A DNA stretch of 64,000 nt from Escherichia coli (GCF_041248615.1 NZ_CP158426.1), one strand, 5' to 3'. Counted from the first letter of the stretch, positions 7,852-53,237 are shown. Made by a program: numbers and translations. The notes: a model not told the origin generated them from the sequence alone.

Positions 7852-10296
7852 TTACACCTTTTCAACCTGAACAAGGTTTGTATGTGACGGATTCCCCTTA
7901 GCGAGAGGAGACGGACGTTGAGTGGTCAGTACGTTGATACAACCGCCCTTATCGACACGTTTTGCATCCGGGTCATACCAGGCACCTTCACCCAGTGCGA
8001 CCACACCCGGCATCATTCGTGGCGTCACTTTCGCCTCAATATGAACCTCACCACGATCGTTAAAGATCCTGACTTTATCGCCGTTGTTGATACCGCGTTT
8101 TTGTGCATCAAGCGGGTTGATCCACATTTCCTGACGGCAAGCTGCTTTCAGCACATCAACGTTGCCGTAAGTTGAGTGAACGCGAGATTTGTAGTGGAAG
8201 CCAGTAAGCTGCAGCGGATATTGTTTGTTCAGCGGATCCTGATAACTTTCAAAGCCCGGCGTATAGATCGGCAGTGGATCGATCACATCGCCTTCTGGCA
8301 ATTCCCAGGTCGCGGCAATGTCAGCCAGCGCCTGCGAATAAATCTCAATTTTACCCGATGGCGTGGTCAGTGGATTTGCCTGAGGATCTTCACGGAAAGC
8401 TTTATAAGCAACGTGGTGCCCTTGTGGGTCGCGCTTTTTAAAGATCCCCTGCTTGCGGAACTCTTCAAACGTTGGCAGTTCAGGAATCGCTTCCCGCGAC
8501 TGGGCATACAGATGCCGCATCCACTCTTCCTGTGTACGGCCTTCAGTAAACTGTTGCTCAACGCCAAGACGTTTTGCCAGTTCGCTGGTCATTTCATAGA
8601 TGGTCTTACATTCAAAGCGCGGTTTAATCACCTGATCGTTGAAAATCACGTAAGACATATTCCCGCAGGATGCATCCAGTGCAAAGTCCATCTGTTCGGA
8701 AGCGGTGCAGTCAGGCAGCAGGATGTCAGCATATTTCGCTGATGAGGTCATGTGGCAGTCGATAACCACAATCAGCTCGCACTTCTTATCATCCTGAAGG
8801 ATTTCATGGGTACGGTTGATTTCAGAATGCTGGTTAATCAGGCAGTTACCGGCATAGTTCCAGATCATTTTGATCGGCACATCCAGCTTATCTTTCCCGC
8901 GCACACCATCACGCAGCGCTGTCATTTCCGGGCCACGTTCAATGGCATCGGTCCACATAAACATCGAAATGCTGGTCTGGATCGGGTTTTCGAGGGTCGG
9001 CATACGGACAAACGGTAAGCTGTATGAACCTTCACGCGCGCCGCTGTTCCCCCCGTTAATACCAACGTTACCGGTCAGAATCGCCAGCATCGAGATAGCA
9101 CGGGTTGCGATTTCACCGTTAGCGTGACGCTGCGGGCCCCATCCCTGGCTGATAAACGCCGGTTTGGTACTGCCGATTTCACGAGCCAGTTTGATGATTT
9201 TGTCTGCCGGAACACCGGTGATTTGCGAGGCCCATTCCGGCGTTTTAGCCACGCCATCTGGCCCTTCACCCAGAATATAAGCTTTATAGTGACCATTTTT
9301 CGGCGCACTGGCTGGCAGTGTTTTCTCGTCGTAGCCAACGCAATATTTATCGAGGAATGCCTGATCCACCAGGTTTTCGGTGATCATGACATACGCCAGA
9401 CCGTTAACCAGTGCGGCATCTGTTCCCGGACGAATGGGGATCCACTCATCTTCGCGCCCGGCTCCGGTGTCGGTATAGCGCGGATCGATGATGATCATGC
9501 GAGCATTAGATTTCTGACGCGCCTGTTCAAGATAGTAAGTCACCCCACCGCCACTCATTCGCGTTTCGCCAGGGTTATTACCAAACAGCACTACCAGTTT
9601 ACTGTTTTCGATATCCGACGGGCTGTTACCATCTGCCCAGCCGCCGTAGGTATAGTTCAAACCTTCCGCAATTTGCGCGGAAGAGTAGTCACCGTAATGG
9701 TTCAGATAACCGCCGCAGCAGTTCATCAGGCGAGCGACCAGGGTATTTCCCGGCGGCCAGGAGCGGGTCATGGTGCCGCCCAGCGTACCGGTGCCATAGT
9801 TCAGATAGATAGACTCGTTGCCGTACTCTTTGATCAGGCGCTGCATATTGGTCGCGATGATGTCGTAGGCTTCTTCCCAGCTAATGCGCTCGAATTTGCC
9901 TTCACCGCGCGCCCCGACTCGTTTCATCGGATATTTCAGGCGGTCCGGATTGTAGACACGGCGACGCATGGAACGCCCACGCAGACAGGCGCGCACCTGG
10001 TGCAGGCCGTCATAGTTGTCATCGCCGGTATTATCCGTTTCAACATATTTAATTTCACCGTCCACAACGTGCATACGTAGCGGGCAGCGACTACCACAGT
10101 TAACTGTACAGGCGCTCCAGATAACCTTTTCGTCTGATTTTGTTGGAATGGCGCTATCGACAGCGTGCGCAATCCGACTAAAAGGTAATGTTAATGCGCT
10201 GCTGGCCATTGCCAGGCCGCCGATCGCTGTCGTTTTTACCAAACCACGGCGACTCACCTCAGCAGCCAATACCGCATCAGGGATTTTCGTTTTCAT
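7852..10296 (-). CDS. dmsA: DMSO reductase catalytic molybdopterin subunit
   Basis: 814 aa; N-terminal Tat signal (SRRGLVKTTAIGGLAMA); molybdopterin oxidoreductase architecture. Confidence 0.95.
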   Translation of the reverse strand: MKTKIPDAVLAAEVSRRGLVKTTAIGGLAMASSALTLPFSRIAHAVDSAIPTKSDEKVIWSACTVNCGSRCPLRMHVVDGEIKYVETDNTGDDNYDGLHQVRACLRGRSMRRRVYNPDRLKYPMKRVGARGEGKFERISWEEAYDIIATNMQRLIKEYGNESIYLNYGTGTLGGTMTRSWPPGNTLVARLMNCCGGYLNHYGDYSSAQIAEGLNYTYGGWADGNSPSDIENSKLVVLFGNNPGETRMSGGGVTYYLEQARQKSNARMIIIDPRYTDTGAGREDEWIPIRPGTDAALVNGLAYVMITENLVDQAFLDKYCVGYDEKTLPASAPKNGHYKAYILGEGPDGVAKTPEWASQITGVPADKIIKLAREIGSTKPAFISQGWGPQRHANGEIATRAISMLAILTGNVGINGGNSGAREGSYSLPFVRMPTLENPIQTSISMFMWTDAIERGPEMTALRDGVRGKDKLDVPIKMIWNYAGNCLINQHSEINRTHEILQDDKKCELIVVIDCHMTSSAKYADILLPDCTASEQMDFALDASCGNMSYVIFNDQVIKPRFECKTIYEMTSELAKRLGVEQQFTEGRTQEEWMRHLYAQSREAIPELPTFEEFRKQGIFKKRDPQGHHVAYKAFREDPQANPLTTPSGKIEIYSQALADIAATWELPEGDVIDPLPIYTPGFESYQDPLNKQYPLQLTGFHYKSRVHSTYGNVDVLKAACRQEMWINPLDAQKRGINNGDKVRIFNDRGEVHIEAKVTPRMMPGVVALGEGAWYDPDAKRVDKGGCINVLTTQRPSPLAKGNPSHTNLVQVEKV

Positions 10297-10466
10297 AATG
10301 GCTCACTCAAGCTTGCTCACGATTGATTCCAGTAACAAACCGTATTGTGTAATTATTTCTATAGCAGTTCGCTATATAGGCTTGTATACATCGAATAATT
10401 TGAAAATCAAAGAGATAGGTAGATTTTCACTCGAAAGTAGTATTACGTGTAAGTGAGGAGTAATTA

Positions 10467-10480
10467 TTGTTCGGTATCAA
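10467..10480 (-). promoter_or_regulatory. FNR-type site (TTGAT-N4-ATCAA class) in dmsA promoter region
   Basis: reverse complement reads TTGATACCGAACAA, about 170 bp upstream of dmsA ATG. Confidence 0.45.
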
Positions 10481-10491
10481 AGGGAGACAAA

Positions 10492-10506
10492 AAAAGCGCC
10501 CGCAGG
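10492..10506. repeat. attL core (direct repeat AAAAGCGCCCGCAGG)
   Basis: identical 15-mer at 50468-50482; GGTACTTA at 10516-10523 mirrors TAAGTACC at 50456-50463. Confidence 0.55.
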
Positions 10507-10592: not shown

Positions 10593-11588
10593 TTACTGGT
10601 CGATGGACAGTTTATGGACACTTTCAGCCAGCGGATTAAAGCTGATCGCATCCTGTAAAAAGTCCGGTGAAAAATGCGCATACGTCATCGTTTGCTGAAT
10701 CGTGGCGTGACCCAGGATCCTCTGCAACGTGACGATGTTCCCGCCGTTCATCATGAAATGCGTGGCGAACGTGTGCCGCATGACATGCGTGGCCTGCCCT
10801 TTGGGTAAGTCGGGCTTCACCTCCTGAAGGATCTCCCTGAAACTGAGATAATCAACCTGATATAACAGGCCGGTCCGGCGGGTTTTAATTAACGGCACAA
10901 CGGAATCAGCTACAGGAACCGAGCGCGATTTCCCGTTCTTTGTGTTAAAGAACGTCACCCTGTTACCCACGATGTGTTCCCCGCGAAGCGTTGACGCCTC
11001 TTTCCATCTGGCCCCGGTCGAAAGGCACAGAATGGCAATGCGTCGTGCATCACCCTCAAGCCGTTTCAGAAGGCGATCAATCTCGTCATCTGAAAGAAAG
11101 GCCATTTCTGTATTCTGAACCTTGAGTTTACGTATTCCGCGCACAGGGTTTTCGTTATGATAAACCTCCGCGTCAATTAACAACGAAAACATCGCAGATA
11201 AGGCGCACAGGTCGCGATTGATACTGGACGGCATCAGTCCCGCCTGCAACTTATCCGAGCGATACTCAATCACGAATTTTCGTGTCATCTGGCTGGCGCG
11301 CGGGTCCCCCATTTCACGTATCACCTTCTCCAGTCTGGTTCTGTAGGTATCACCATATGCCTGATTACGACCATCAAGCATCCACCACACCTCAATCAGT
11401 TCTGATAACCGCCGTTGATCGGCGGGCCTTGCCTGCCACGGGTTATTGTGGAAATTCTGAAGAACGTATCTTTCGAATTCCTGCGCCTTTGATTTCAGGG
11501 TGAAAATCTTACGAATCCGCCTTCCTCCCGCCCCCTGAGGCCTTACATCAACCTGATAACGTCCGTCTTTGAGTTGCTTAATCGACAT
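10593..11588 (-). CDS. int: P2-type tyrosine integrase
   Basis: 331 aa from ATG with SD GGAGGTG; N-terminus MSIKQLKDGRYQVDVRP and C-terminal HxLRHxFAT...Y catalytic region; resemblance to P2 Int is from memory. Confidence 0.9.
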   Translation of the reverse strand: MSIKQLKDGRYQVDVRPQGAGGRRIRKIFTLKSKAQEFERYVLQNFHNNPWQARPADQRRLSELIEVWWMLDGRNQAYGDTYRTRLEKVIREMGDPRASQMTRKFVIEYRSDKLQAGLMPSSINRDLCALSAMFSLLIDAEVYHNENPVRGIRKLKVQNTEMAFLSDDEIDRLLKRLEGDARRIAILCLSTGARWKEASTLRGEHIVGNRVTFFNTKNGKSRSVPVADSVVPLIKTRRTGLLYQVDYLSFREILQEVKPDLPKGQATHVMRHTFATHFMMNGGNIVTLQRILGHATIQQTMTYAHFSPDFLQDAISFNPLAESVHKLSIDQ

Positions 11589-11657
11589 GATCAGCACCTC
11601 CGACGGATAAACCTGTTAACCCCTGCTTACTGAACGCCGCCCGTTCAATATACAGCG

Positions 11658-39528: not shown

Positions 39529-42500
39529 CTAATCTCTGTCACGGAAACTACCGACTGTCTGGCGGATACGGCGTTCCATTTCCGCACGGACGGCATCACC
39601 CACCATTTTTGCCAGTTCGCGCGGGTTTTGCGTGTGAACATCATGCAGGTGAATATGCAGTTCGCCAGTTAATCCCCATGGTGCCGGCTCACTCTGGCGC
39701 GGTCGGGGCGATGCGGGGGATATGGGCTGGCGCACAGCCTCAACCACCGGACGGGATGTTGCCGCCATCACTGGTGTCATTAGCGGGGAGAACGTCGGCA
39801 TGACATCGTGAGTCATAACCGGTTTGATCACCGGCGGAACCACTGGCGTAATATTACCGGACAGTACCGGACGGACGACCGGAGGAATAACCGGCACATT
39901 ATTCACGGACACCACCGGCTTCACGACCGGCGACACGTTCGCCGTGGTGGATATCAGCGGCGAAACACTGACAGGCGGTGGCGCTGGCAGCGGTGGCAAC
40001 GAAGGCACACTGACCGACGGCACCTGCGGCAGTCTGACAGGTGGCTCACTGACACTACCCGGTAACAGGGAAGCTGCTCGGTTAAAGCGTTCCTCCTTCC
40101 ACTCACCACGAACGGCCAGCGCTTCCGGCAGGTTTTTAAAGATAATATCGCCGGGACCAGCGCGTTTTTTCGCCTGTTTCGCCTCATCCAGCAGACCACC
40201 GGTGTTATCGACGATTTTGTTCAGGCGGCGCATAGTGCCGGTATTCTCCCCCGTCAGGGGTGGTTGCCCCCCTTTGGGTTTTTCGCCGTCTTTTTTATCC
40301 TCGTCCTTTTTCGGCGGATTAATGACGTTAACATCCGCCAGAAGCATGGCAGCTTTCTCGTTCAGCAACTCCTTCTGTTTTAGTTCTTCCGCCTTTTTCC
40401 GGGCGCGCTCAACCGCCGACGGAATCAGCCCGAGTTTTTCCAGCACCCGGGTTAATGAGTCAATCAGCAGCGTAACCGGACCGGTCACCAGATTGCTGAT
40501 AAACTCCCCTACCTTCTGCCCGAACGTACGCCCGGCTTCCGTGCACTTGTCCAGCTCATCCTTTGTTGTGCTTACCGGCGCGAACAAATCCACGAACCAC
40601 TGCCACACACGCCCGATTGTCTGCCCGACATACTCAAACAGCGGTCCCAGTGGTGCCACAGCCTCGCGCAGTGGCGTAAGCCCCTGCCACAGGCCGGACA
40701 AGAACCCGCCCACGACAGCCTTCAGCTGGTCCCAGTGCCGCCAGATAAGCACTGCCGCACCGACCAGTGTCGCCACCACAAGGCCCACCGGACTTAACAG
40801 AAAACCCAGCGCCCCGCCAAGTGCGCCCACCGCACCACTCACCATCCCCCACAGTGCGGGCAGACCTGACAGTCTGAGCGCCAGTATTCCGATACCGCGC
40901 CCCAGTGAAATCAGTGCGCCGCCAGGTGAAGTGAACGCAGCCAGCAGACCACCACGCAGCGCGCCAAGTCCCGCCTGCACACCACGAAGCCGCCCCGCAA
41001 CTACGCCCAGCAGTGCAGCAAACCGTCCGGCACCGGAGGTGATACCGACAAACAGCACGCGCCAGCCACCGATACCGCCCAGCGGACCACCGAGTACGCC
41101 GCGCAGCTGCGTCAGTAACGGCAGCGCACGACCGAGGCCGGATGTGCCGGTCAGCAGGGCAAACCCAAGACGCAGTTTTGCCAGCGGCCCCATCAACACA
41201 CCAGTGGCAAGTGACAGCGCCCCCATGGCCGCAACCGCAGCCAGCAGTACACCACCGGCAATCAGCAGTTGTTTTGTCAGTTCAGGGTGCGCCTGAGCCA
41301 GCGCGGTGACTTTCGCAATAACCCGGGTGAACGACTGCGTGACAGAACGCAGCGGCCCGTCAACGAGGTCAGCGACACGGATACGCAGTCCTTCCCATGC
41401 GCTGTTCAGTGATTTCAGGTCACCGTCCAGGTTATCAGCCATAACACGGGCAGTGTGATTAAGTTCCCCGGTGGCCAGTTCAATCTCCTGCGTAAGACGG
41501 GGAAGATTATTTTCCCCCGCCGCAGTGACAAGATTCATCAGGGAAACATAGGACTCCTGCCCGGCAATAGCCCTGAAAAAGGAGACCTGCGCGGCATTAC
41601 CGTATTTTCGGGTGGCCTGGTACAGCTCATTCAGGATATTTTCCATCCGGCGCATGTTCCCGTAAGCATCCTGCGTCTCCACGCCAAGCTCTTTCAGTGC
41701 CATTGCAGCGGCCTTCGGCGGATCAACCAGACGTGACAGACTGGCACGCAGCGCCGTACCTGCATCACTTCCACGGATCCCCACACTGCCAAGGACACCC
41801 GTCATGGCTGCCGCCTGTTCAAGGGACAGGCCAAGTGAAGCTGCAACCGGACCCGTGTACTTCATGGTTTCACCCAGTGAACGGAGATCCGTATTGGTTC
41901 GTGTGAAGGTGGCGGCCAGCGTGTCACCCACGCGATCCATCTGGTCAGCGGACAGACCAAACTGTGTGAGGATATTCGAACTGATATCGGCAGTCTGTCC
42001 CAGGTCCATCCCTGCAGCCATTGCCAGATCAAGCACGCCGGGTAGCGCCGCCTGTATGGCCTGTGGTGTGAAGCCGGCCATGGCAAGGAACGCCTGACCG
42101 CTGGCAGCATCACCGGCGGTAAACTGCGTTTCAGAGCCCAGCTTAATGGCCTGTTCGCGCAGCGCCTTAAACTGCGGACTGTTTTTGTCAATACGGGTCA
42201 GCGCCTGGACGCGTGACATCTCCTTACCAAAACTGACCGCCGGTTGCAGGAAACGTCCGGCCGCATAGCCGCCTGCCGCCGCCGTACCAACCGCCGTAAG
42301 TCCGACCGTTTTAAGTTTTCCCGCCGTCTCCTGAGCACGGGAATATTGCTGGCGTGCCTGCGTGACACGTGCCAGCGCCTGCCGTTCGCGTTCCAGCTGG
42401 TCGTTGTATTGCTGTGTTCGCCGTATGGCCTGTTGAATGGTGTTGTCACTGCCGGAAAGCGCAATACCGTGGCGCCGCAGCTCACCACCCAGTTCGCGCA

Positions 42501-42840
42501 TTCGCTGAACTTCACGCGCACGGACCTCATTGAGACGCTCAAGTTTGAGGCTCAAATCGTTCATCAGCTTTTTCTGTTTGTCAGACAGCACGGTTCCGGC
42601 GCGCTGAATTTGCTGAAGTGCGCTTAACTGGCGTTGCGCCCTGACAATGCCGTTTCCGGCCTTGTTTGCAGCCTCGCGGGCGCGATCAAATGAACGGGCG
42701 TAGCGTTCCAGGTTTTTGATCGCACCCTGCGTTCTCTGTATGGAGTCGCCAAGCTGGCCCATCATGCGACGGGCGTTTTCGGTGGGACGGGTCAGCCTGT
42801 CAACAGCGCTGAAGGCGACCCGTATATCAAGCGTTTTCAT
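39529..42840 (-). CDS. tail tape measure protein (P2 gpT-like)
   Basis: 1103 aa from ATG 42838-42840; coiled-coil/Ala-Gly-rich core; Pro/Val-rich C-terminus. Confidence 0.85.
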   Translation of the reverse strand: MKTLDIRVAFSAVDRLTRPTENARRMMGQLGDSIQRTQGAIKNLERYARSFDRAREAANKAGNGIVRAQRQLSALQQIQRAGTVLSDKQKKLMNDLSLKLERLNEVRAREVQRMRELGGELRRHGIALSGSDNTIQQAIRRTQQYNDQLERERQALARVTQARQQYSRAQETAGKLKTVGLTAVGTAAAGGYAAGRFLQPAVSFGKEMSRVQALTRIDKNSPQFKALREQAIKLGSETQFTAGDAASGQAFLAMAGFTPQAIQAALPGVLDLAMAAGMDLGQTADISSNILTQFGLSADQMDRVGDTLAATFTRTNTDLRSLGETMKYTGPVAASLGLSLEQAAAMTGVLGSVGIRGSDAGTALRASLSRLVDPPKAAAMALKELGVETQDAYGNMRRMENILNELYQATRKYGNAAQVSFFRAIAGQESYVSLMNLVTAAGENNLPRLTQEIELATGELNHTARVMADNLDGDLKSLNSAWEGLRIRVADLVDGPLRSVTQSFTRVIAKVTALAQAHPELTKQLLIAGGVLLAAVAAMGALSLATGVLMGPLAKLRLGFALLTGTSGLGRALPLLTQLRGVLGGPLGGIGGWRVLFVGITSGAGRFAALLGVVAGRLRGVQAGLGALRGGLLAAFTSPGGALISLGRGIGILALRLSGLPALWGMVSGAVGALGGALGFLLSPVGLVVATLVGAAVLIWRHWDQLKAVVGGFLSGLWQGLTPLREAVAPLGPLFEYVGQTIGRVWQWFVDLFAPVSTTKDELDKCTEAGRTFGQKVGEFISNLVTGPVTLLIDSLTRVLEKLGLIPSAVERARKKAEELKQKELLNEKAAMLLADVNVINPPKKDEDKKDGEKPKGGQPPLTGENTGTMRRLNKIVDNTGGLLDEAKQAKKRAGPGDIIFKNLPEALAVRGEWKEERFNRAASLLPGSVSEPPVRLPQVPSVSVPSLPPLPAPPPVSVSPLISTTANVSPVVKPVVSVNNVPVIPPVVRPVLSGNITPVVPPVIKPVMTHDVMPTFSPLMTPVMAATSRPVVEAVRQPISPASPRPRQSEPAPWGLTGELHIHLHDVHTQNPRELAKMVGDAVRAEMERRIRQTVGSFRDRD

Positions 42841-43045
42841 GCTCTGCGTTCCCGCTGCGAAGGGCCGCCCGCTCACGCCAGGCGACCACCTCGCCGGGAT
42901 CCATCAGGAAGATTTCAGCGGGAGACCAGTTGAAAATAACGGCGATATCCGCCACAAAGTCTTCAATGTGCTCAAAGGGCACGACGGTTATCAGCCTGCC
43001 GTCGCCGCCCCGCTCTTCCCGCCAGAGTCCTGACCGGCCAAAAAA
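42827..43045 (-). CDS. gpE' extension reached by programmed -1 frameshift
   Basis: slippery TTTTTTG (plus-strand 43039-43045); -1 frame open until a stop overlapping the gpT start. Confidence 0.5.
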   Translation of the reverse strand, partial: FFGRSGLWREERGGDGRLITVVPFEHIEDFVADIAVIFNWSPAEIFLMDPGEVVAWRERAALRSGNAEHENA

Positions 43046-43922: not shown

Positions 43923-45205
43923 TAAGCACCTCCAAGCGTCGCAAATGCAGGACCAAAGAATTCATCAGTAAACGCCTGGTAAAGTTCCATATCCTCAAGC
44001 GGCGGAACGGGCGTGTACTTGTAGCGGATACGCACGCGTCCCTGACGAAGTTCCGTGGTGCTGTTATCCACCACGTCATACCAGCACTCCGCACCAATGA
44101 GACGTCCTGACGTAACCAGCGCATCCAGTTTTGCGCGAATTGCGCTTAACACGTCTTTCACATTAGCAGGGGTCAGCGGGGCATCAATCGTTTCAAACTG
44201 CGCTTCCGCAATGGAATCAGCCAGCACCTGAGCGGTTCGCGTGTACACCTCAAAGATATACGCCTTCGTTTCCGGCGTACGGTTGCCCCAGAAGCGGAAA
44301 CCGTTACGGCAAATGATGGTAGTGATTTCCTTGTTGTTGAGATTGTTGGCATCGCTGTCTTCGGACTGAAGGGACCAGAACACCGGGCTGGAAATACCCA
44401 GCACATTTCTTACCGGCACGTTGGACAGCGATTTATGCCAGCCCTGTTCGTGGTCAATACGTGCACGTAAACCGCAGGCGTACGCCGCAGCCGGGAAGAC
44501 CTCATTAGCGCCGGATTTCGGGTTATGGGCGATGAAGTCCGGCCAGACCAGCATAAGTTCGCGCTCGTTAAATCTGGCGCGGTAGCTGATTGCATCGGCG
44601 GGCTTCTTGCAGTTGTGACAGCCCGCGTAGACAAATGCGCGAAGTTTTTCTGCAATTACACACAGGGATTTTGTGACAGCTTCAGTATCCAGTCCGGGAG
44701 CTGCGATGATGCGCGGACGGTAACCGATGGCATCATCCTGTTCAGCTATCAGAAGTGCATACATACCGGTATAATTACCGTCGCCATCCGTGCCACCAAT
44801 GACATACTGGTCCTGCGTTTTGTGTGGGTATACAGGATGTGCATCTTCAGACTCATCAATACCAAAAAATGCCCTGTCTTCAGGATCCAGATGACCGAAT
44901 GATGTAACTCCTGTATCCGGGGCGCCCTGAGAACTGGCATCAGGAACGCGCACCACAATCACCTTCGTGCTCACCTGGTCGGCGACAGCCTTAAGCGATT
45001 TGTAAAGCGTCCCCTTTGTGCCGGCCTTACCCAGCACATCACTGACGCGGGTCAGCAGTGTGGGTTTGTTCAGCGGGAACAGAGTTTCATCCGCGTCATC
45101 TGCCGTAGCCACAATACCAATAACACTGGAATCCACATCATTAATGGCGGTGGCAAGGCCGGTACTTTCCCTTACGCGCGCACCATGAAAGCGTGTTTCA
45201 CTCAT
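43922..45205 (-). CDS. tail sheath protein (P2 gpFI-like)
   Basis: 427 aa from ATG 45203-45205 (MSETRFHGARV); track ORF start at 45352 is an unsupported extension. Confidence 0.85.
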   Translation of the reverse strand: MSETRFHGARVRESTGLATAINDVDSSVIGIVATADDADETLFPLNKPTLLTRVSDVLGKAGTKGTLYKSLKAVADQVSTKVIVVRVPDASSQGAPDTGVTSFGHLDPEDRAFFGIDESEDAHPVYPHKTQDQYVIGGTDGDGNYTGMYALLIAEQDDAIGYRPRIIAAPGLDTEAVTKSLCVIAEKLRAFVYAGCHNCKKPADAISYRARFNERELMLVWPDFIAHNPKSGANEVFPAAAYACGLRARIDHEQGWHKSLSNVPVRNVLGISSPVFWSLQSEDSDANNLNNKEITTIICRNGFRFWGNRTPETKAYIFEVYTRTAQVLADSIAEAQFETIDAPLTPANVKDVLSAIRAKLDALVTSGRLIGAECWYDVVDNSTTELRQGRVRIRYKYTPVPPLEDMELYQAFTDEFFGPAFATLGGA

Positions 45206-45278
45206 ATGTTTCACCCTTGTCTGGCTGGTTGATTTTGCGTAATCATTACCCACACACGCGGTAATCTCACCCCTTTGA

Positions 45279-45302
45279 TGTTGTCTCCTGACAGCGACAA
45301 CA
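45279..45302. promoter_or_regulatory. Ogr-type late-promoter dyad between divergent gpFI and gpD
   Basis: TGTTGTCTCCTGACAGCGACAACA; centre about 85 and 76 bp from the two start codons. Confidence 0.5.
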
Positions 45303-45366
45303 AAACAGCCATTCAACGCCGCTGCGGTGCATGAAACCATTACAGAACGCACCAGGAGAGAACACC

Positions 45367-46458
45367 ATGAAAGAGCTGTCAGTTACCGTTCCGTCACCGG
45401 ATATCGACATCACCATCAACAACAACACACTGGCAAACCTCACAGAGCGACTCATGACGCTGACCCTGACGGATAACCGGGCCTTTGAGGCAGACCGCGT
45501 CACCCTCACCCTTGACGATACGGACGGGCAGTTACAGTTGCCACCACGTGGCGCACGCCTGAGAGTGATGATTGGCTGGCGAGGAGAATCACTGGTTAAC
45601 AAGGGCACCTACGTCGTTGATGAGGTTGCGTGGGAAGGACCTCCAGATAAACTGATCATCACCGCCAGCAGCGCAGATTTTCGGGAAGAGTTCAACGTGA
45701 GGCGGGAGGTATCCTGGCACGACGTGACCGTAAAACAGGTTGTGTCAGCCATCGCTCACCGCTACGGCCTGAAGACACAGATAAGCGAAATCCTCATGGA
45801 TATCGAAATTGACCACGCTGACCAGACCGAAGAGAGCGATATATCCTTCCTGACCCGCATGGCTGAAATGCTGGGTGCGATTGCCACCGTAAAAAACGGC
45901 AGCCTGTTATTCATTCTGCCGGGTGGCGGAACCGGGCCGGACGGAAGAGCCCTGCCTTCGTTCGCCATTACCCGCAGCAGCGGCGACAGTCACCGCTTTC
46001 GCATTGCTGACCGTGATGCGTATACGGGGGTCCGGGCGCACTGGCTCGATCTGAAGTTCGGGCACAAGAAAAAAGTGAACGTGAAGCGACGCAGGGAAGC
46101 CGGGAAACAGAAACAGGAGAAGAGCAGCAGCCGGGAGGGTGATTACATGGAAGGCGCGGAAGGGAACGTCTACGTTCTGCGCAGGACTTACCAGAATGAA
46201 GAAACCGCACGACGTGCAGCTGCGGCAAAGTGGCAGGAGTTACAGCGGGGAGCAGCGGCATTCTCCATCACTCTGGCACGGGGTCGTGCCGACCTGTATC
46301 CCGAAATGCACGGCAGGGTAACAGGTTTTAAAAGCGAGGTGGACAATCAGGACTGGATTATTGCCAGGGTGGAGCACATCATAGATGAAAGCGGCTTCAC
46401 CACACAACTGGAGCTGGAAGCGAAAATCCCCGAATGGATAGCAGATTCAGGCGGATAA
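45367..46458 (+). CDS. tail protein D (P2 gpD-like)
   Basis: 363 aa from ATG 45367 with SD AGGAGAG; N-terminus MKELSVTVPSPD. Confidence 0.8.
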   Translation: MKELSVTVPSPDIDITINNNTLANLTERLMTLTLTDNRAFEADRVTLTLDDTDGQLQLPPRGARLRVMIGWRGESLVNKGTYVVDEVAWEGPPDKLIITASSADFREEFNVRREVSWHDVTVKQVVSAIAHRYGLKTQISEILMDIEIDHADQTEESDISFLTRMAEMLGAIATVKNGSLLFILPGGGTGPDGRALPSFAITRSSGDSHRFRIADRDAYTGVRAHWLDLKFGHKKKVNVKRRREAGKQKQEKSSSREGDYMEGAEGNVYVLRRTYQNEETARRAAAAKWQELQRGAAAFSITLARGRADLYPEMHGRVTGFKSEVDNQDWIIARVEHIIDESGFTTQLELEAKIPEWIADSGG

Positions 46459-46501
46459 AATTAAAATGAGCCATCTCCACTCAGCCAGATAAGGAGAAGC
46501 C

Positions 46502-46753
46502 ATGTTCCGTTGTCCCCTATGCGGTGCATCCGCACGTATCCGCACCAGTCGCAATGAAAATGATTCAGGCACAGTTCGCCTGAAGTACTACCAGTGCAAT
46601 AACCTCGAATGCGGGATCGGCTTTACCACACTGGAGGGTTTTAACAAATTCACATCAAAACGCGCCCCGTCGCCGCAGGGTACAGAGCGGATACCGTGGG
46701 AAGATTTTCCGGGATCTCACAGGGGGAATACTCAGATTAATCTTGATATTTAA
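46502..46753 (+). CDS. ogr: Ogr/Delta-family zinc-finger late activator
   Basis: 83 aa; MFRCPLCG...YYQCNNLEC four-Cys finger; SD AAGGAG. Confidence 0.85.
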   Translation: MFRCPLCGASARIRTSRNENDSGTVRLKYYQCNNLECGIGFTTLEGFNKFTSKRAPSPQGTERIPWEDFPGSHRGNTQINLDI

Positions 46754-46759
46754 GAACAA

Positions 46760-46897
46760 TAATCAGGTTGAGAGGACATCATAAGGCAAGTAGATTAACG
46801 GCAGATACTTTCCCGCAACCACGGGCAAGTATTTAATTATCCATGATGAAATATGACCTAAATTGTTTTTTGCCCGCCGGAAAGCGGGCATTTTTTT
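46760..46897 (+). repeat. repeat unit 1 (partial) ending in bidirectional intrinsic terminator
   Basis: shares GTTGAG...AGTAGATTA...CCATGAT...TTTTGCCCGCCGGAAAGCGGGCATTTTTTT with four downstream units. Confidence 0.55.
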
Positions 46898-47111
46898 ATT
46901 CTTTTGTGGTTATGGGGTCATCAGGAACCACGTGCAGATTATATTTTTGTTTTTTTGGCGTTCCTCCGGCAGCAACGAGTTCATCAATAAGACACTGACA
47001 CGCCTGAACATCCCGGGCATGTCTTAGTTTCACCTTTATTGATTTAACCTTATCCTCACCGGAGGAGAAATGCAGTTCAATCTCAATATCGTTTCTTCGG
47101 AACAATCTCAT
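46896..47111 (-). CDS. small protein of unknown function
   Basis: 71 aa (MRLFRRNDIEIELHF...); two decayed copies downstream; palindrome upstream. Confidence 0.5.
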   Translation of the reverse strand: MRLFRRNDIEIELHFSSGEDKVKSIKVKLRHARDVQACQCLIDELVAAGGTPKKQKYNLHVVPDDPITTKE

Positions 47112-47206
47112 ACGCCCCCTGAATATATCAGAAATACTAGTATCGAAAAATGAGAAAACAGTTAGACAGGAGAAACATATTAACACAAATCATTTATACC
47201 TATAGA

Positions 47207-47222
47207 TGAAATTATAATTTCA
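47207..47222. promoter_or_regulatory. perfect 16-bp palindrome TGAAATTATAATTTCA upstream of the small gene
   Basis: palindromic; related inverted repeats upstream of the two decayed copies. Confidence 0.35.
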
Positions 47223-47331
47223 TTCATGAATATGATAGATAACTATATTGTGAACAAAATGAAAAATGGCTAAATTAAAAATGGGCATGGAGGAATGCCC
47301 GGTTATCAATATAATGTGACGTAGATCATTG

Positions 47332-47562
47332 TTTTGCCCGCCGGAGAGCGGGCATTTTTTTTGCGCCTGCCATCGAGGCGCCTTCCCTGGCGCACACAAA
47401 GCAGCCCTGATTTTCCATGAAAACTTCAGGGTTGAGCTGCGGGCACAAAGTGAGTAGATTAGCTACGGGTACCTCCCCCTGACAACAGGAAGGGTGTCCA
47501 TTATCCATGATATACAAACGAAAAGTCTTGTTTTTTGCCCGCCGAAGCGCGGGCATTTTTTT
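47332..47562 (+). repeat. repeat unit 2, terminator-to-terminator (candidate structured sRNA)
   Basis: bounded by GCCCGCCGGAGAGCGGGC and GCCCGCCGAAGCGCGGGC hairpins with T-runs; internal conserved hairpin CCCTGATTTTCCATGAAAACTTCAGGG. Confidence 0.5.
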
Positions 47563-47688
47563 ATGCATCAGACAAGATACAGCCCACCCCAACTGACACC
47601 TGAAATATTGCCGCAACAAAAAGAAACAGTTAAATTACGCGCGGGTGCCTTTCGGCTGATGGCCGGAGGGAAAACCTGAAGGCCGGAT

Positions 47689-47922
47689 GTGGAAAGGCCC
47701 CGGAAAACATTTCTGTTTAACCGAGGCCCTAACCGCATTACCTTGACAAGTGAAAGGTTAGCGCCTCTCCGGAAAAGGAGCAAGTGCTATGTCGCAAAAA
47801 TCGCTTACGGCCATCACGTTCTGCGTGACGGCAATCCTCATCATCTGGATATTGCACGGTTCGCTGTGCGAAATACGGATGAGCTTCTGGGGAGCGGAGT
47901 TTGCGGCGTTCTTACAATGTAA
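47689..47922 (+). CDS. mok-like overlapping reading frame of hok locus 1
   Basis: 77-codon frame starting upstream of and overlapping hok, as in hok/mok/sok loci. Confidence 0.35.
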   Translation: MERPRKTFLFNRGPNRITLTSERLAPLRKRSKCYVAKIAYGHHVLRDGNPHHLDIARFAVRNTDELLGSGVCGVLTM

Positions 47923-47929
47923 GAAGTAA
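47789..47929 (+). CDS. hok: Hok/Gef-family type I toxin
   Basis: 46 aa MSQKSLTAITFCVTAILIIWILHGSLCEIRMSFWGAEFAAFLQCKK; SD AAGGAG; single TM plus conserved LCE and AAF motifs. Confidence 0.7.
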   Translation: MSQKSLTAITFCVTAILIIWILHGSLCEIRMSFWGAEFAAFLQCKK

Positions 47930-48015
47930 GGAAACCGCGACGGGGGAGCAATCCCCCGTCAATCGGTTGCCAGGGTAAGGTCGATAAGGCACCCTATCTC
48001 ACAGACATGAACAAC

Positions 48016-48050
48016 AAACCCGCAGCATAAAAACTGCGGGTTTTCTTTTT
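48016..48050 (+). terminator. intrinsic terminator of hok locus 1
   Basis: stem CCCGCAG/CTGCGGG followed by TTTTCTTTTT. Confidence 0.5.
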
Positions 48051-48181
48051 GGTGTCCTCACCGACTTGAAACAGTGATCAGACTATAAGACAAAGCCCGC
48101 AATGTTGCGGGCTTACTCTACCTCTCGAAAATGTGGTCACTGCGTGGACATACGCTGATACAAATCCTTTATATCAATAAA

Positions 48182-48280
48182 TTAAATCTTTGTTTTTTTC
48201 ATCAACAATGATTTAACCTTATCCTCACCGGAGGAGAAATGCAGTTCAATCTCAATATCGTTTCTGTGGAACAGCCTCAT
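48182..48280 (-). pseudogene. truncated copy of the 71-aa small gene
   Basis: first 24 codons near-identical to 46896-47111 copy, then diverges to early stop. Confidence 0.45.
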
Positions 48281-48501
48281 AAGACAACCTCCTGAATTCA
48301 TCAGAAACACAGTCAACTGAAAACCAGAAAGCAGACAAACAGTGGACACACATTAATACAAATCATTTATACCTATAGATGAAATTGCAGTTTCATCTAT
48401 AACATGACAGGTAACAATATTGTGAAAAAACTCAAAACTCGTTAGATTAAAGACGGACAGAGCAATGCTACTTTATCAATAACATGTAACCTGTACTTCC
48501 T

Positions 48502-48732
48502 TATTTTGCCCGCCGAAGCACGGGCATTTTTTTTGCGCCTGCCATCGAGGCGCCTTCCCTGGCGCACACAAAGCAGCCCTGATTTTCCATGAAAACTTCA
48601 GGGTTGAGCCAAAAGCACAAAGACAGTAGATTAACCACGGGTGCCTTCCACCTGACAACAGGAAGGGTGTCCAGTATCAATGACAGACAACTCACATTGC
48701 TGTTTTGCCCGCCGGAAAGCGGGCATTTTTTT
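48502..48732 (+). repeat. repeat unit 4, terminator-to-terminator
   Basis: same architecture and sequence family as unit 2. Confidence 0.5.
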
Positions 48733-48734
48733 AT

Positions 48735-48936
48735 TCTTTTGTGGTTATTGGGTCATCAGGAACAACATGCAGATTATGCTTTGATTTTTTTGGTGTTATT
48801 ACAGCAGCAACGAGTTTATTAATAAGACACTGACATGCCTGAACATCCCTGACATATCATAATTTCACTTTATTTTTTTAGCTTGTCCTTTCTGGAGCAG
48901 AAATATCTCAACATCGTTTCTGTGGAACAACCTCAT
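48735..48936 (-). pseudogene. degenerate copy of the 71-aa small gene
   Basis: nucleotide homology to 46896-47111 across its length but reading frame disrupted. Confidence 0.35.
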
Positions 48937-49151
48937 TTGCCCCTGAATGTATCATAAATATCAGCATCGGAAAACCAACAGCAATACAGAAGAAACATGT
49001 TAATGCAAATCACTTATACCTATAGATGAAATTACAGTTTTGTTCATAAATATGATAAGTAACTATATTGTGAATAAAATGAAAACTAGCTAAATTAAAC
49101 GTGGGCATGGTGGAATGCCTCGTAATCAATAATACATGATCCGTACTTCCT

Positions 49152-49380
49152 TGTTTTGCCCGCCGGAAAGCGGGCATTTTTTTGGCGGTTACCATCGCCT
49201 CACCTTCCTGGTTCACATGAAGCAACCCTGATTTTCCATGAAAACTTCAGGGTTGAGACAAAAGCACAAAGACAGTAGATTAACCACGGGTACCTTCCAC
49301 CTGACAACAGGAAGGCTGTCCAGTATCAATGACAGACAACTCACATTGCTGTTTTGCCCGCCGGAAAGCGGGCTTTTTTT
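49152..49380 (+). repeat. repeat unit 6, terminator-to-terminator
   Basis: same family; 5' hairpin region diverged, 3' region conserved. Confidence 0.5.
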
Positions 49381-49582
49381 GGCAGTTATCATAGCCGCAC
49401 CTTCCTGGCACATATGAAGCAACCCTGATTTTCCATGAAAACTTCAGGGTTGAGACAAAAGCACAAAAACAGTAGATTAACCACGGGTGCCTGCCACCTG
49501 ACAACAGGAAGGGGTGTCCATTATCCATGATATACAAACGAAAAGTCTTGTCTTTTGCCCGCCAAAGCGCGGGCATTTTTTT
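49351..49582 (+). repeat. repeat unit 7, terminator-to-terminator (shares a terminator with unit 6)
   Basis: same family; directly upstream of hok locus 2. Confidence 0.5.
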
Positions 49583-49793
49583 ATGCATCAGACAAGATAC
49601 AGCCCACCCCAACTGACACCTGAAATATTGCCGCAACAAAAAGAAACGGATGCCTTTCGGCTGATGGCCGGAGGGAAAACCTGAAGGCCGGATGTGGAAA
49701 GGCCCCGGAAAACATCTGTGTTTAACCGAGGCCTGACCCTTCCTACCGTGACAAGTGGAAGGTTAGCGCCTCTTTGTAAAAGGAGCAAGCGCT

Positions 49794-49934
49794 ATACCGC
49801 AAAAAACGATTATTGTTGGCATTTTATGCCTGACAATAACCCTGGTCATCTGGATGGTCCACGATTCGTTATGTGAATTCAGCTTTGATATCTGGGGAGC
49901 GCGTTTTGCGGCGTTCTTGCAGTGTAAACCGTAA
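49794..49934 (+). pseudogene. hok-like toxin gene copy 2 with ATA in place of ATG
   Basis: encodes IPQKTIIVGILCLTITLVIWMVHDSLCEFSFDIWGARFAAFLQCKP; no canonical in-frame start; mok-like frame 49694-49876 overlaps. Confidence 0.45.
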
Positions 49935-50084
49935 GAAACCGCAGCGGGGGAGAAATTCCCCGCTATCCGGTTGTTGGGGTGGGCCGATATGGCGCCCTTT
50001 CCCTGTAGAGACAAAACAAAAAACCAGATTTGCCCGCCATTGAGAGGGCTTTTTTGTCACCCTCACCAGTGAGGGCATCATCAT

Positions 50085-50312
50085 TCAGAGGCGCGTAAGC
50101 CACCCGGCGTTAACATCCTGCCTGTCAACCCTGGCCGCAGAGTCTGAACGGCAGGTACCGGAAGGAGTACCAAAAACATCCCTGACAAGTTCCGCCACCT
50201 TCCCGATATCATCAGGTGTCACATTCCTCACCTCGGCCGTGATCCGTGGCGTACCATCATCGTTAACAAGAGTGGCTTTAAAGCTGGTGCGAAGGGAAAA
50301 CAACATCAACAT
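50085..50312 (-). CDS. hypothetical 75-aa protein at prophage right end
   Basis: strong SD GGGAGGGG before ATG; no recognisable motif. Confidence 0.5.
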   Translation of the reverse strand: MLMLFSLRTSFKATLVNDDGTPRITAEVRNVTPDDIGKVAELVRDVFGTPSGTCRSDSAARVDRQDVNAGWLTRL

Positions 50313-50423
50313 CCCCTCCCTTTGGTTCGTTGCACTGACGGCACGACACCATCAGGAAAAAGAAAAGCCCACAACGTCAGTATTGTGGACTTTTTTCTTC
50401 AAAGATGGACATTATCTGGACAC

Positions 50424-50450
50424 ATGAAAATAAAATCCATTTATTTTCAT
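50424..50450. promoter_or_regulatory. perfect 11-bp-arm inverted repeat ATGAAAATAAA/TTTATTTTCAT next to attR
   Basis: perfect palindrome, 5-bp spacer, 17 bp from the att core. Confidence 0.35.
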
Positions 50451-50467
50451 ATAGTTAAGTACCATGC

Positions 50468-50482
50468 AAAAGCGCCCGCAGG
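50468..50482. repeat. attR core, overlapping the serS intrinsic terminator
   Basis: identical to 10492-10506; continues into GCGCTTTTT terminator 3' of serS. Confidence 0.55.
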
Positions 50483-50510
50483 CGCTTTTTAGATTCAGAA
50501 AAATTGGGTA

Positions 50511-51824
<1,314 letters not shown>

Positions 51825-51893
51825 TTAAATGGGAGATGTGGCCACAGCCTGCGACCACAGGGATACAGTAACAACATTACCGCAACGATAACA

Positions 51894-53237
51894 TTAACGG
51901 TAGCGTTTTATGGGGCTATTTTGATCCTGTTCAGCCAGCCAGGCGAGCTTTTCGCCAATCTTGCCTTCAAGGCCCCTGTTTGTCGGGAAATAATAGCGTG
52001 TTTGTGCTATTTCCGGCGGGAAGTAAACCTCACCGGCAGCATAAGCGTTTGCTTCATCATGAGCGTAACGATATTCCTGCCCGTAGCCCATTTCCTTCAT
52101 TAATTTCGTCGGCGCATTACGCAAATGAACCGGCACGTCATAATCCGGACGTTCGCGAGCATCCGCCAGCGCGGCTTTAAACGCAGTGTAGACAGCGTTG
52201 CTTTTTGGCGCGCAGGCCAGGTAAACAATCGCCTGAGCAATGGCGCGTTCTCCTTCCGCCGGGCCAACTCGGGTAAAGCAATCCCAGGCCGCAATTGCCA
52301 CCTGCATCGCTCGTGGATCAGCATTACCCACATCTTCCGACGCTATCGCCAGACAGCGACGCGCGACATATAACGGATCGCCACCGGCAGTAATAATTCG
52401 CGCATACCAGTACAGCGCCGCATCGGGTGCGCTACCACGTACCGACTTATGCAGTGCGGAAATGAGATCGTAAAAGCGATCGCCTTTGTTATCAAAGCGG
52501 GCGCTACGTTCACCGGCGATTTCGGTCAGTAATTCAGGCTTCAGGACCCGCTTACCGCTATCATCGACTTCGGCCATATCCGCCATCATTTCCAGCGTAT
52601 TTAACGCCCGGCGCGCGTCGCCATTCACCAGTTCAGCAATGGCGCGTCGCGTTTCATCTGGCAGAACTATATCCTGACCACCATAGCCACGGGTTTTGTC
52701 TTCCATCGCCTGAGTAAGCACCTGCTCAATATCCTCTGTACTCAGGGATTTCAGCAGATAGACACGGGCACGGGAAAGCAGTGCCGAGTTAAGTTCAAAC
52801 GACGGGTTTTCAGTGGTTGCGCCAATAAAAGTGATGGTGCCGTCTTCAATATGTGGCAGAAATGCATCCTGCTGGCTTTTGTTGAATCGGTGAACTTCGT
52901 CAACAAAAAGAATAGTGCGGCGACCAGCATTGCGGTTTTGCCGAGCGCGCTCGATCGCCTCGCGAATCTCTTTCACGCCAGAAGTAACGGCAGAAATACG
53001 TTCCACATCAGCGTTCGCATAGCGGGCAATCACTTCAGCGAGGGTTGTTTTGCCGGTACCCGGTGGCCCCCAGAGGATCATAGAATGCAAATGCCCGGCT
53101 TCGATAGCACGCGGCAACGGCTTCCCCGCAGCCAACAAATGTTGCTGGCCGATATACTGTGCTAAATTTTCTGGCCGCATACGCGCGGCCAGAGGTTGAA
53201 AAGTATTATCCGAAAAATCGAGCGACAGATTGCTCAC
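51894..53237 (-). CDS. rarA: replication-associated recombination protein A (AAA+ ATPase)
   Basis: 447 aa; Walker [10 protein letters not shown]. Confidence 0.9.

Follow-up and report, generated by a model that had tools for sequence, protein, structure and literature searches.

The right end of a P2-like Escherichia coli prophage: accessory cargo with a family of likely small RNA genes and a fossil attachment site

We describe a 3.7-kb segment (46754-50466) within a 64,000-nt window of the Escherichia coli sequence NZ_CP158426.1 (GCF_041248615.1); the window is the whole stretch of DNA that was analysed and all coordinates refer to it. The segment lies between ogr, the late transcription activator gene of an integrated P2-like phage, and the right attachment site (attR) of this prophage. 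We propose, with a probability of roughly 60%, that it represents an accessory ('moron') right end of the prophage, which was built by accretion, is fluid in recombination, and carries a hok module together with likely independent small RNA (sRNA) genes. The modules follow each other in the order ogr, B0, A1, B1, C1, X, A2, B2, A3, B3, B4, C2, Y and attR. The B modules are sRNA-like units, each A module combines a copy of a small gene with a further unit of the same build (As), C1 and C2 are hok loci, X belongs to a fossil attachment site and Y is the segment next to attP. Coordinates of all features are collected in Table 1.

Prophage boundaries and status of the segment

The att core AAAAGCGCCCGCAGG is found in exactly two copies in the window, at 10492-10506 and 50468-50482 (0.03 expected by chance), and the identity of the two copies ends at 15 bp. 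When positions 10292-10506 are joined to 50483-50700, the resulting 433 nt are contiguous, as dmsA followed by serS, in 5077 of 5426 complete E. coli genomes, with up to 100% identity. Therefore, 10507-50482 (39,976 bp) is an insertion and the segment at 46754-50466 lies within it. The integrase gene is located at 10593-11597, just inside attL, while D and ogr are close to attR, and the element between dmsA and serS is a P2-like prophage (Peduoviridae, distantly P88-like). Since the closest sequenced phages (Chuche, PhiR44_2 and P88) match just 26% of its late region, at 77% identity, its lineage among the peduoviruses is a poorly sampled one.

In phage P2, a stretch of ~100 nt contains the ogr stop codon, a terminator, the P-arm sites for the integrase (Int), the integration host factor (IHF) site and the attP core, whereas in this prophage 3.7 kb separate ogr from the P arm. 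The same modules are present directly 3' of ogr in related prophages that reside at copA (loci L002 and L003), zapB (L004), tRNA-Leu (L019) and serS (L001, L021 and L022), i.e. they travel with the prophages to different chromosomal sites. The 3.7-kb segment is thus phage cargo and not host DNA. An earlier reading of the window, made from the sequence alone, had already placed the segment inside the integrated element, on the grounds that the att core is found at 50468-50482 and not immediately 3' of ogr, unlike in canonical P2 with its ogr beside attP, and the empty site, the P2 arrangement and the comparison with other P2-like prophages all bear this out. It had also allowed that the locus might turn out to be a known, described element; this is so only for the hok component, as hok following ogr is annotated in P88-like phages, and not for the rest.

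A family of eight units resembling sRNA genes

The B and As units are all built in the same way. The -35 element (TTGAGA, TTGAGC or TTGTGA) is separated by exactly 17 nt from the -10 element (TAGATT or TAAATT), and ~7 nt further on there is a stem-loop, followed by a stretch that is mostly unpaired in the consensus fold. This stretch opens with UAUC(C/A)AU(G/A)A and continues into a linker of which five or six variants exist. The 3' part of the unit consists of a U-rich run and a hairpin, GCCCGCC...GCGGGC, with 7-8 U. Across the five B units the alignment spans ~190 nt, and the As units, one per A module, are divergent from the small gene. The promoter of B0 begins 15 nt past the ogr stop codon, and B0 runs towards the 71-aa gene, up to the 3' end of the latter, and is 100% identical across all array variants.

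A repeat search revealed 15 direct-repeat families within 4.2 kb, among them a 40-nt terminator family with nine copies and a 174-nt unit which, together with its shorter core, is present in 4-5 copies. Terminator-like sites number 17, compared to 5.3 +/- 2.6 in shuffled sequences, and the members of the family are all on the + strand. Positions 47492-47627 and 49512-49647, which span the junction between a B unit and hok, are 99% identical.

We built a covariance model from the B units alone and searched the window and other P2-like loci with it. The model recovered all three As units over their full length (E values in Table 1) and nothing else at E <= 0.01 in the loci searched, apart from two terminator-only matches in unrelated phage contigs; therefore, the family has eight members here. 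There is no conserved open reading frame (ORF) on either strand of the units, because insertions and deletions shift every frame. Hidden coding capacity was considered and rejected, since frames, lengths and starts differ between the copies on both strands.

The pattern of conservation within the units is uneven. When B0 is compared to the other units, identity is 100% in the -10 element, 92% in the -35 element and 89% in the terminator, and drops to 50% in the promoter spacer, 48% in the hairpin and 60% in the linker. In the 5' hairpin 96% of the cells are paired, compared to 30-55% with slid partners, and three pairs are changed on both sides, with the pair counts taken from an alignment which was fitted to the model and contains only 12 distinct sequences. 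The hairpin also contains many G-U pairs, which are sensible only in RNA. For covariation the score is 0.176, a value that 0 of 500 shuffles reach (0.116 in shuffles), and B0-B3 fold better than shuffled sequences, with z from -2.0 to -3.4, the latter for B0. Judging from the alignments, this is the conservation pattern that one expects of expressed structured RNAs.

A 27-nt near-palindrome, CCCTGATTTTCCATGAAAACTTCAGGG, is found 5' of the -35 element of B1-B4 (within 47386-47431, 48558-48603, 49207-49252 and 49404-49449). It is 95% conserved among B1-B4 and their relatives, is missing from B0 and has its centre ~50 nt 5' of the predicted start. Possibly a dimeric regulator binds here; we recognised no known operator consensus in it.

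The units have no match among the Rfam families. In a scan of 44000-53000 against Rfam at a permissive threshold, only sub-threshold sok and terminator-driven matches appeared; for the units the best were Hrs1 (24.6 bits), RyhB (24.4 bits, E = 0.5) and AgvB (23.2 bits, E = 0.7), where the gathering scores are 55-56. The units were not found in GenBank phages or in PLSDB plasmids, and searches of IMG/VR and of JGI metagenomes located them only in the same E. coli prophage lineage. The terminator-only pattern occurs in two unrelated phages, which share the hairpin alone. In the literature we found no paper with the unit sequences and none linking P2-like phages, ogr and sRNAs.

Fossil attachment site and proposed assembly of the array

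Module X and the first 55 nt of A2 can be aligned with functional phage ends, and we identify them by this alignment as a fossil attR inside the small gene. It comprises a terminator-like hairpin (48093-48114), Int arm-type repeats ATGTGGTCACTGCGTGGACA (48131-48150), an IHF-like AT-rich site and a remnant of the core. In strain Q5 the right end of a P88-like prophage next to flk matches it at 95% identity, the order there being ogr, hok, com, methyltransferase, the homologue of the fossil attR and flk, and the terminal sequence of the PhiR44_2 record matches it at 85-94%. There is also similarity to the P arm of P2 (z = 9.7), with ATGTGGTCACTGCGTGGACA followed by AAATCCTTTATATCAATAAATT in the fossil and ATGTGGTCAATGTGTGGACG followed by AAATCCTTTTATTTCAATTTATT at the annotated Int P arm and IHF site of P2. 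In a four-way alignment the fossil follows the functional ends as far as the junction ...CATCAACAA|TGATTTAACC (48200-48218), and exactly there the sequence of the 71-aa gene begins. At the position of this junction the intact A1 reads TTTCACCTTTATTGATTTAACC, resembling the phage core.

Traces of P arms are not limited to the fossil. Intergenic sequence in each A module resembles a P arm as well (z = 4-12 when compared with the X/A2 relic), and the relic 5' of the A1 gene includes a perfect 18-bp palindrome, ATGAAATTATAATTTCAT (47206-47223). These relics fit an ancestor in which the small gene was directly beside attP.

Comparison of related prophages shows how variable the array is. At serS, L021 and L022 have ogr, B0, an uninterrupted A gene (the A1 part joined to the A2 part), B2, A3, B3, B4, C2 and Y; L004 has this order too, except that it carries A1; L002, L003 and L006 have only ogr, B0, A, B, B and Y; and the array in L019 ends in a 5' fragment of hok, beyond which lie two unrelated ORFs (126 and 202 aa). 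The sizes seen are 1.3, 2.5, about 2.5 and 3.7 kb, the minimal variant keeps four units, and at least five module orders can be explained by crossovers in shared units.

How could such a locus arise? The ancestral slot, which still exists in other P2-like prophages, would have consisted of ogr, a convergent gene of the phrog_14142 family, the Int P arm and the att core. In this E. coli lineage two things would then have been added to the slot, a hok/sok locus of the kind seen in P88-like phages and a set of small transcription units. The fossil attR would have been left behind when the right end of a second phage, consisting of hok, hairpin, P arm and flk-type core, was joined to sequence inside one small-gene copy. 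The likely route would be that a sibling phage ending in A1, B1, hok, X and P arm integrated at a secondary site in the small gene of an L021-type resident, after which the tandem phage bodies collapsed by homologous recombination. Unequal recombination between the ~190-bp units and their identical terminators now expands and contracts the array, and crossovers at the nearly identical starts and terminators of the units would have given rise to the shorter variants. Overall, the arrangement suggests that two right ends were fused and then reworked by unequal homologous recombination; the fossil junction itself is visible in the alignment, and nested integration is in our opinion the most economical way to produce it.

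The sequence-only reading needs to be amended accordingly in some respects and holds in others. It listed five homologous terminator-delimited units; the family is real, although its members number eight, five B units and three As units inside the small-gene modules. One 71-aa gene with two decayed copies (intact, truncated and frameshifted) and a 75-aa ORF on the minus strand are present as it described, and so are both hok/mok-like loci, with the second being a pseudogene. It also saw tandemly duplicated composite modules rather than random decay. The repeats are indeed real, with conserved promoters and terminators, but that description is incomplete, since the presence of a fossil attachment site suggests that the locus is apparently two fused phage right ends.

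Table 1. Features of the segment between ogr and attR and of its borders (window positions; E values and bit scores of the units are from the covariance model built from B units)
Feature	Position	Strand	Description
ogr, late transcription activator	46502-46753	+	Left border of cargo; RefSeq ogr/Delta-like zinc finger protein; phrog_603 and NF007241 matches
B0	46768-46897	+	TTGAGA, 17 nt, TAGATT; 5' hairpin; linker with UUAUCCAUGAU; intrinsic terminator; 87.9 bits, E = 6e-17
A1 gene, intact 71-aa protein	46896-47111	-	RefSeq WP_001236182.1; short form of phrog_14142 family
P-arm-like relic 5' of A1 gene	47169-47223		Similar to X/A2 P-arm relic, z = 5.3
As1	47248-47362	+	TTGTGA, 17 nt, TAAATT; hairpin GGGCAUGGAGGAAUGCCC; linker UUAUCAAUAUAAUG...; terminator; divergent from A1; 44.4 bits, E = 2.6e-7
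B1	47432-47562	+	Alpha-type linker UUAUCCAUGAUAUACAAACG...; 113 bits
C1, apparently intact hok/mok/sok-type locus	47608-48050	+	phrog_251; Rfam sok; RefSeq Hok/Gef
Fossil attR	48069-48214	+	Module X and first 55 nt of A2
A2, truncated copy of 71-aa gene	48182-48280	-	First 24 codons kept, then into fossil att sequence (...DKVKS|LLMKKTKI*)
As2	48420-48534	+	TTGTGA, 17 nt, TAGATT; 32.9 bits, E = 9e-5
B2	48604-48732	+	Beta-type linker GUAUCAAUGACAGACAACUCACAUUGCUG; 111 bits
A3, frameshifted copy of 71-aa gene	48731-48937	-	8-nt and 2-nt deletions
As3	49068-49183	+	41.8 bits, E = 1e-6
B3	49253-49380	+	Beta-type linker; 102 bits
B4	49450-49582	+	Alpha-type linker; 116 bits
C2, decayed hok locus	49628-50060	+	Alignment to C1; Rfam sok 40.7 bits, E = 1.5e-6
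Y, attP-proximal segment	50061-50466		75-aa ORF and functional P arm
attR core	50468-50482		Left half of serS terminator hairpin; attL copy at 10492-10506

The hok loci

The locus C1 appears to be intact. Its promoter consists of TTGCCG (47608) and TAAATT (47631) spaced by 17 nt, the mRNA would start at ~47643 and the terminator is at 48016-48050. The hok frame (47789-47929) encodes 46 aa, and mok (47689-47922, 77 aa, GTG start) overlaps it in another frame. The 5' sequence GGGUGCCUU (47643-47651) is perfectly complementary over 9 nt to AAGGCACCC (47986-47994), which fits the long-range pairing of hok mRNA ends (tac/fbi). The C1 Hok matches phrog_251, 'MokW-like host killing', over its full length with E = 8.5e-22 and is annotated in RefSeq as 'Hok/Gef family protein', while against NCBIfam HokA it scores 30.7 bits with the cutoff at 89, so it is a divergent member of Hok/Gef. 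The leader matches the Rfam sok family RF01794 along the entire model (1-157 of 157) with 46.2 bits and E = 5e-8, below the gathering score of 59. Phages P88 and PhiR44_2 and prophage Q5 have hok loci that share 90-95% identity with C1.

In C2, both the -10 element and the site of transcription initiation have gone with a 15-nt deletion, hok has ATA where its ATG should be, and mok is cut to 60 aa. The end pairing is also lost, as the complement of the 5' GGAUGCCUU is absent from the locus. A consensus-like antisense (sok) promoter is retained at 49836-49809 on the minus strand, scoring 10 of 12 in the promoter scan. By these features C2 is a pseudogene, which may still make an antisense RNA.

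By analogy with its family, C1 would produce a stable folded hok mRNA that is kept silent by a labile antisense RNA, so that loss of the element or shut-off of transcription would free Hok and kill the cell. In this way C1 would stabilise the prophage or abort infections. Compared to the known hok/mok/sok loci (R1 parB, hokA-E and the MokW-like loci of P88-like and Shiga toxin (Stx) phages), C1 shares the Hok/Gef ORF, the overlapping mok, a leader that can be aligned with the whole sok model and the complementary ends; it differs in an Rfam score under the gathering threshold (46 versus 59 bits) and in a Hok that is shorter than the NCBIfam equivalogs. The position of hok directly 3' of ogr has already been sequenced and annotated in P88-like phages and prophages (P88, PhiR44_2 and Q5), so this part of the locus is not new. 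In contrast to those phages, here there is a second, dead copy, and RNA-like units and the small gene separate hok from ogr.

The small gene and the phrog_14142 family

The sequence-only reading assigned no function to the 71-aa protein. A profile search matches it to the uncharacterised family phrog_14142 with E = 4.9e-12, at profile positions 72-127 of 128; since the match is confined to the C-terminal half of the profile, the protein is a short form. It has no Pfam or NCBIfam match, and neither it, the 75-aa ORF of module Y nor the long-form protein has a match in PADLOC. The protein is hydrophilic, and its structure model is of low confidence (predicted local distance difference test, pLDDT, 59.7), with only generic ferredoxin-like matches. 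About 70 relatives (71 by profile search), all annotated as hypothetical, are found across Enterobacterales, in Salmonella, Citrobacter, Enterobacter, Klebsiella, Yersinia, Pectobacterium and Sodalis.

The family has two forms, one long (~128 aa) and one short (~57 aa), the latter beginning at a methionine that is internal and invariant in the former. Over the C-terminal 55 residues the 71-aa protein can be aligned with the family, and it has the common invariants M72, L74, E81, E83, L100, R101, C109 and L112. In contrast to the relatives, it lacks the N-terminal half and has its own 16-residue tail, and identity outside its own lineage is 35-48%. No remnant of the N-terminal half of the long form was found upstream of the 71-aa gene.

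A long form of 133 aa is found in other P2-like prophages (L013 and L014), where it is convergent to ogr and sits directly beside P-arm-like sequence and the host gene fabB. The 71-aa gene has the same slot, in which it faces ogr convergently and adjoins the P arm. The 57-aa short form is encoded in P4-like satellites (L009-L012, Logan contigs), 3' of the Toprim primase gene and after ~800 nt of AT-rich, repeat-bearing non-coding DNA; the similarity of this gene to the E. coli A module at the DNA level reaches through the 5' untranslated region.

Met72 is invariant in the 128-aa long forms and is the start of all short forms. This suggests either an internal translation start giving two products or repeated independent truncation at this point. 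A2 is interrupted by the left end of IS1 (GGTGATGCTGCCAACTTACTGATTTAGTG...) in two other arrays of the window type, in L020 (13752-13981) and at the contig end of L005. A possible remnant of a family gene across the attP of PhiR44_2 gave only a weak match (E = 0.23), and we do not claim it.

Module Y and other cargo in the slot

Module Y contains the functional P arm, with Int repeats at 50404-50423 and an IHF-like site extending up to ~50460, which is similar to the P arms of P2 (z = 5.1) and L013 (z = 8.1). The 75-aa ORF (50085-50312, minus strand) is intact in two alleles that are 90% identical, with mostly non-synonymous nucleotide differences. It has no family match, and RefSeq annotates a homologue in the copA-side variant alone; the ORF is unlikely to be a conserved gene.

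Related prophages carry other cargo in the same place. In the tRNA-Leu prophage L019 (SKEX01000776.1), hok is cut after the leader and replaced by a two-gene operon on the opposite strand (1074-1454, 126 aa, and 469-1077, 202 aa), so the slot between ogr and att accepts other cargo. By eye, the 126-aa protein resembles the YafO toxin; it has no match in PADLOC. P88-like prophages at flk (Q5; L032, 3087-4020) and phage Chuche have com and a DNA methyltransferase gene between hok and the P arm, resembling mom of Mu.

Elsewhere in the prophage, the tail tape-measure gene (39529-42876, minus strand) is flagged as a pseudogene in RefSeq ('incomplete; missing C-terminus'), yet the window contains an uninterrupted ORF of 1115 aa; the relatives L001-L004 are flagged likewise.

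Possible roles of the units

What is the role of the eight units then? Most likely they are independent genes for RNAs of ~80-100 nt, each with a sigma-70-type promoter, a 5' stem-loop, a variable pairing stretch and a U-tailed terminator. This is the architecture of trans-acting, chaperone-dependent base-pairing sRNAs, which is the function that we propose as the most likely one. The RNAs would be made in the lysogen and would pair with mRNAs of the host or of competitors. Additionally, the 3' ends of B0 and B2 coincide exactly with the stop codon of the small gene convergent to them, which is followed by no good minus-strand terminator, so that by geometry any read-through transcript of that gene would be antisense to both units. 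C2, A2 and A3 are dead copies.

A number of observations weigh against this reading. The 5' hairpin of As2 is degenerate or lost, and the alignment behind the pair counts is small and fitted to the model. Promoter-like sites in the region are not enriched (9, compared to 7.7 +/- 2.9 in shuffles), so the promoter call rests on conservation among the paralogues, which gene conversion could also keep. Predicted duplexes of the units with transcripts of the small gene, hok, ogr or the 75-aa ORF have energies no better than those of shuffles, the longest complementarity to a unit within the window is 13 nt, i.e. at chance level, and a search with the concatenated linkers against 50,697 phage records gave no target. 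The RNA family is rare, being present in 30 of 5426 E. coli genomes, and it is absent from 100,044 species-representative genomes when searched with a strict 20-base promoter pattern. Half of the protein-coding content around the units is decaying, which together with the rarity fits drifting junk. Regarding the other parts of the reading, no convincing promoter for an antisense sok RNA was found in C1, where it was looked for by eye alone, and nested integration is one of several routes that could give the fossil junction.

Several leads to possible targets were followed and abandoned. Complements of the conserved motif were found only on the antisense strands of the units themselves and in scattered short sites with no obvious meaning. 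The 11-mer CUCACAUUGCU in the linkers of B2 and B3 (48690-48700 and 49339-49349) is identical to part of the pairing region of RyhB and lies behind the weak Rfam match to that RNA (E = 0.5), and 13 contiguous pairs can be drawn between the B2/B3 linker and the Shine-Dalgarno/AUG region of sodB. This is not significant, as 13% of shuffled linkers do as well, and we keep it as a lead only. Mimicry of CRISPR (clustered regularly interspaced short palindromic repeats) repeats or of anticodon loops was dropped by eye, because the stems and loops differ.

Since the surroundings are decaying and the family is rare, the main alternative to a set of functional sRNA genes is that the locus is non-functional debris, a graveyard of att flanks with elements homogenised by gene conversion, in which at most the hok locus C1 is active. 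The state of the locus lends this some weight: two of the three small-gene copies and one of the two hok loci are dead, there are a fossil attR, P-arm-like relics and IS1 insertions, the ORF in Y has changed mostly at non-synonymous positions, the size of the array varies freely, and we found a very rare family and no targets for it. However, decay strikes the coding parts and spares all eight sets of promoter, spacing and terminator. The -10 and -35 elements of B0 were kept while the 17-nt spacer between them drifted, and the B0 hairpin, despite its low identity, still pairs by means of compensatory and G-U changes, which points to selection at the level of RNA and not to gene conversion. Therefore we consider debris unlikely, while taking it more seriously than any other alternative.

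If the units are sRNA genes, a more far-reaching possibility is that they form a 'cassette array' of base-pairing RNAs, with fixed promoter, hairpin, lead-in and terminator and an exchangeable pairing segment whose five or six variants are swapped between positions from one prophage to another, and that the prophage diversifies it in order to silence transcripts of the host or of rival phages. If true, the prophage would have an exclusion or host-takeover system that is RNA-guided and protein-light and differs from both CRISPR and toxin-antitoxin systems. We mention it as a speculation in which we place little confidence.

Less probable still is that the units are antitoxin RNAs of a type I array similar to Sib/Ibs or Rdl/Ldr, with the toxin encoded on the opposite strand or being the 71-aa protein. 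Tandem repeats of ~190 bp with sRNA-type promoters and terminators, next to a bona fide type I system, would suit such an array, and the order of a B unit, a small gene on the opposite strand and an As unit recalls both the convergent (par and bsrG/SR4) and the divergent (tisB/istR and zor/orz) layouts of type I loci, with B0 and B2 abutting the 3' end of the small gene. However, ORFs on the opposite strand start in the terminator hairpin, vary in frame and length and are not hydrophobic, and none is conserved. The 71-aa protein is hydrophilic, its long-form relatives occur in other phages without such RNAs, and no significant complementarity of As or B units to the 5' region of the small gene was found.

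Least probable of all is that the repeated terminators act purely as insulation, stopping read-through of the late operon and ogr antisense into serS with no role in trans: all family terminators are indeed on the + strand downstream of the late operon and ogr, that of B0 is the first after ogr and P2 has a single one there, annotated 'terminator for ogr transcript and F operon', but one or two terminators suffice, even the minimal array variant retains four units, and eight conserved promoters ~100 nt 5' of the terminators would be left unexplained.

Novelty and relation to known systems

The eight-member sRNA-like family, the fossil attR within a phage gene and the placement of phrog_14142 in the ogr-attP slot are new here. 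Not new are the hok/sok part and, in general terms, the notion that prophage ends carry cargo. Provided that they are expressed, the units would form the densest cluster of paralogous sRNA genes on a temperate phage that we are aware of, absent from Rfam, and a compact system for studying duplication of sRNA genes and diversification of their pairing segments. Whatever the RNAs do, the locus is a worked example of how a phage end grows: the fossil att records the joining of one phage's end to a cargo gene of another, and the array variants show later resizing by unequal recombination. The locus also draws attention to phrog_14142, which resides in the ogr-attP slot of P2-like phages and in P4-like satellites.

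Variable slots with non-essential cargo have been described in P2-like phages at tin/old, between gpA and the portal gene, and at Z/fun in the tail region (Rousset et al. 2022, PMC9122126; bioRxiv 10.64898/2026.02.27.708500). The ogr-att locus is likewise a variable slot in a syntenic P2-like genome, where non-essential cargo differs between close relatives; it differs in its position between ogr and attP and in having no recognisable defence proteins. In those passages of the 2026 survey that a term search retrieved, the hotspots named are gpA-portal gene, downstream of gpL, int-att and int-primase, with the ogr-att gap not among them, and ogr as a word is absent from the paper (bioRxiv 10.64898/2026.02.27.708500). 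We suggest the ogr-attP slot as a site of accessory genes beyond the hotspots in these passages.

Two groups of chromosomal repeats, QUAD/Sib-Ibs and LDR/Rdl-Ldr, resemble the array in being clusters of repeats of a few hundred bp with an sRNA promoter and terminator, whose copy number varies by recombination. In contrast to them, our units have no conserved ORF for a small hydrophobic toxin and are borne by a phage rather than by the core chromosome.

Base-pairing sRNAs encoded by prophages of enterobacteria include DicF (from Qin), IpeX, and AgvB and AsxR from Stx prophages of enterohaemorrhagic E. coli (EHEC). The units are comparable to these RNAs as putative short cargo genes with a predicted promoter of their own, 5' stem-loop, pairing region, U-rich stretch and U-tailed terminator. 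They differ in having no match to an Rfam family by sequence or covariance model, and, instead of single genes, they appear as eight paralogues within 2.8 kb.

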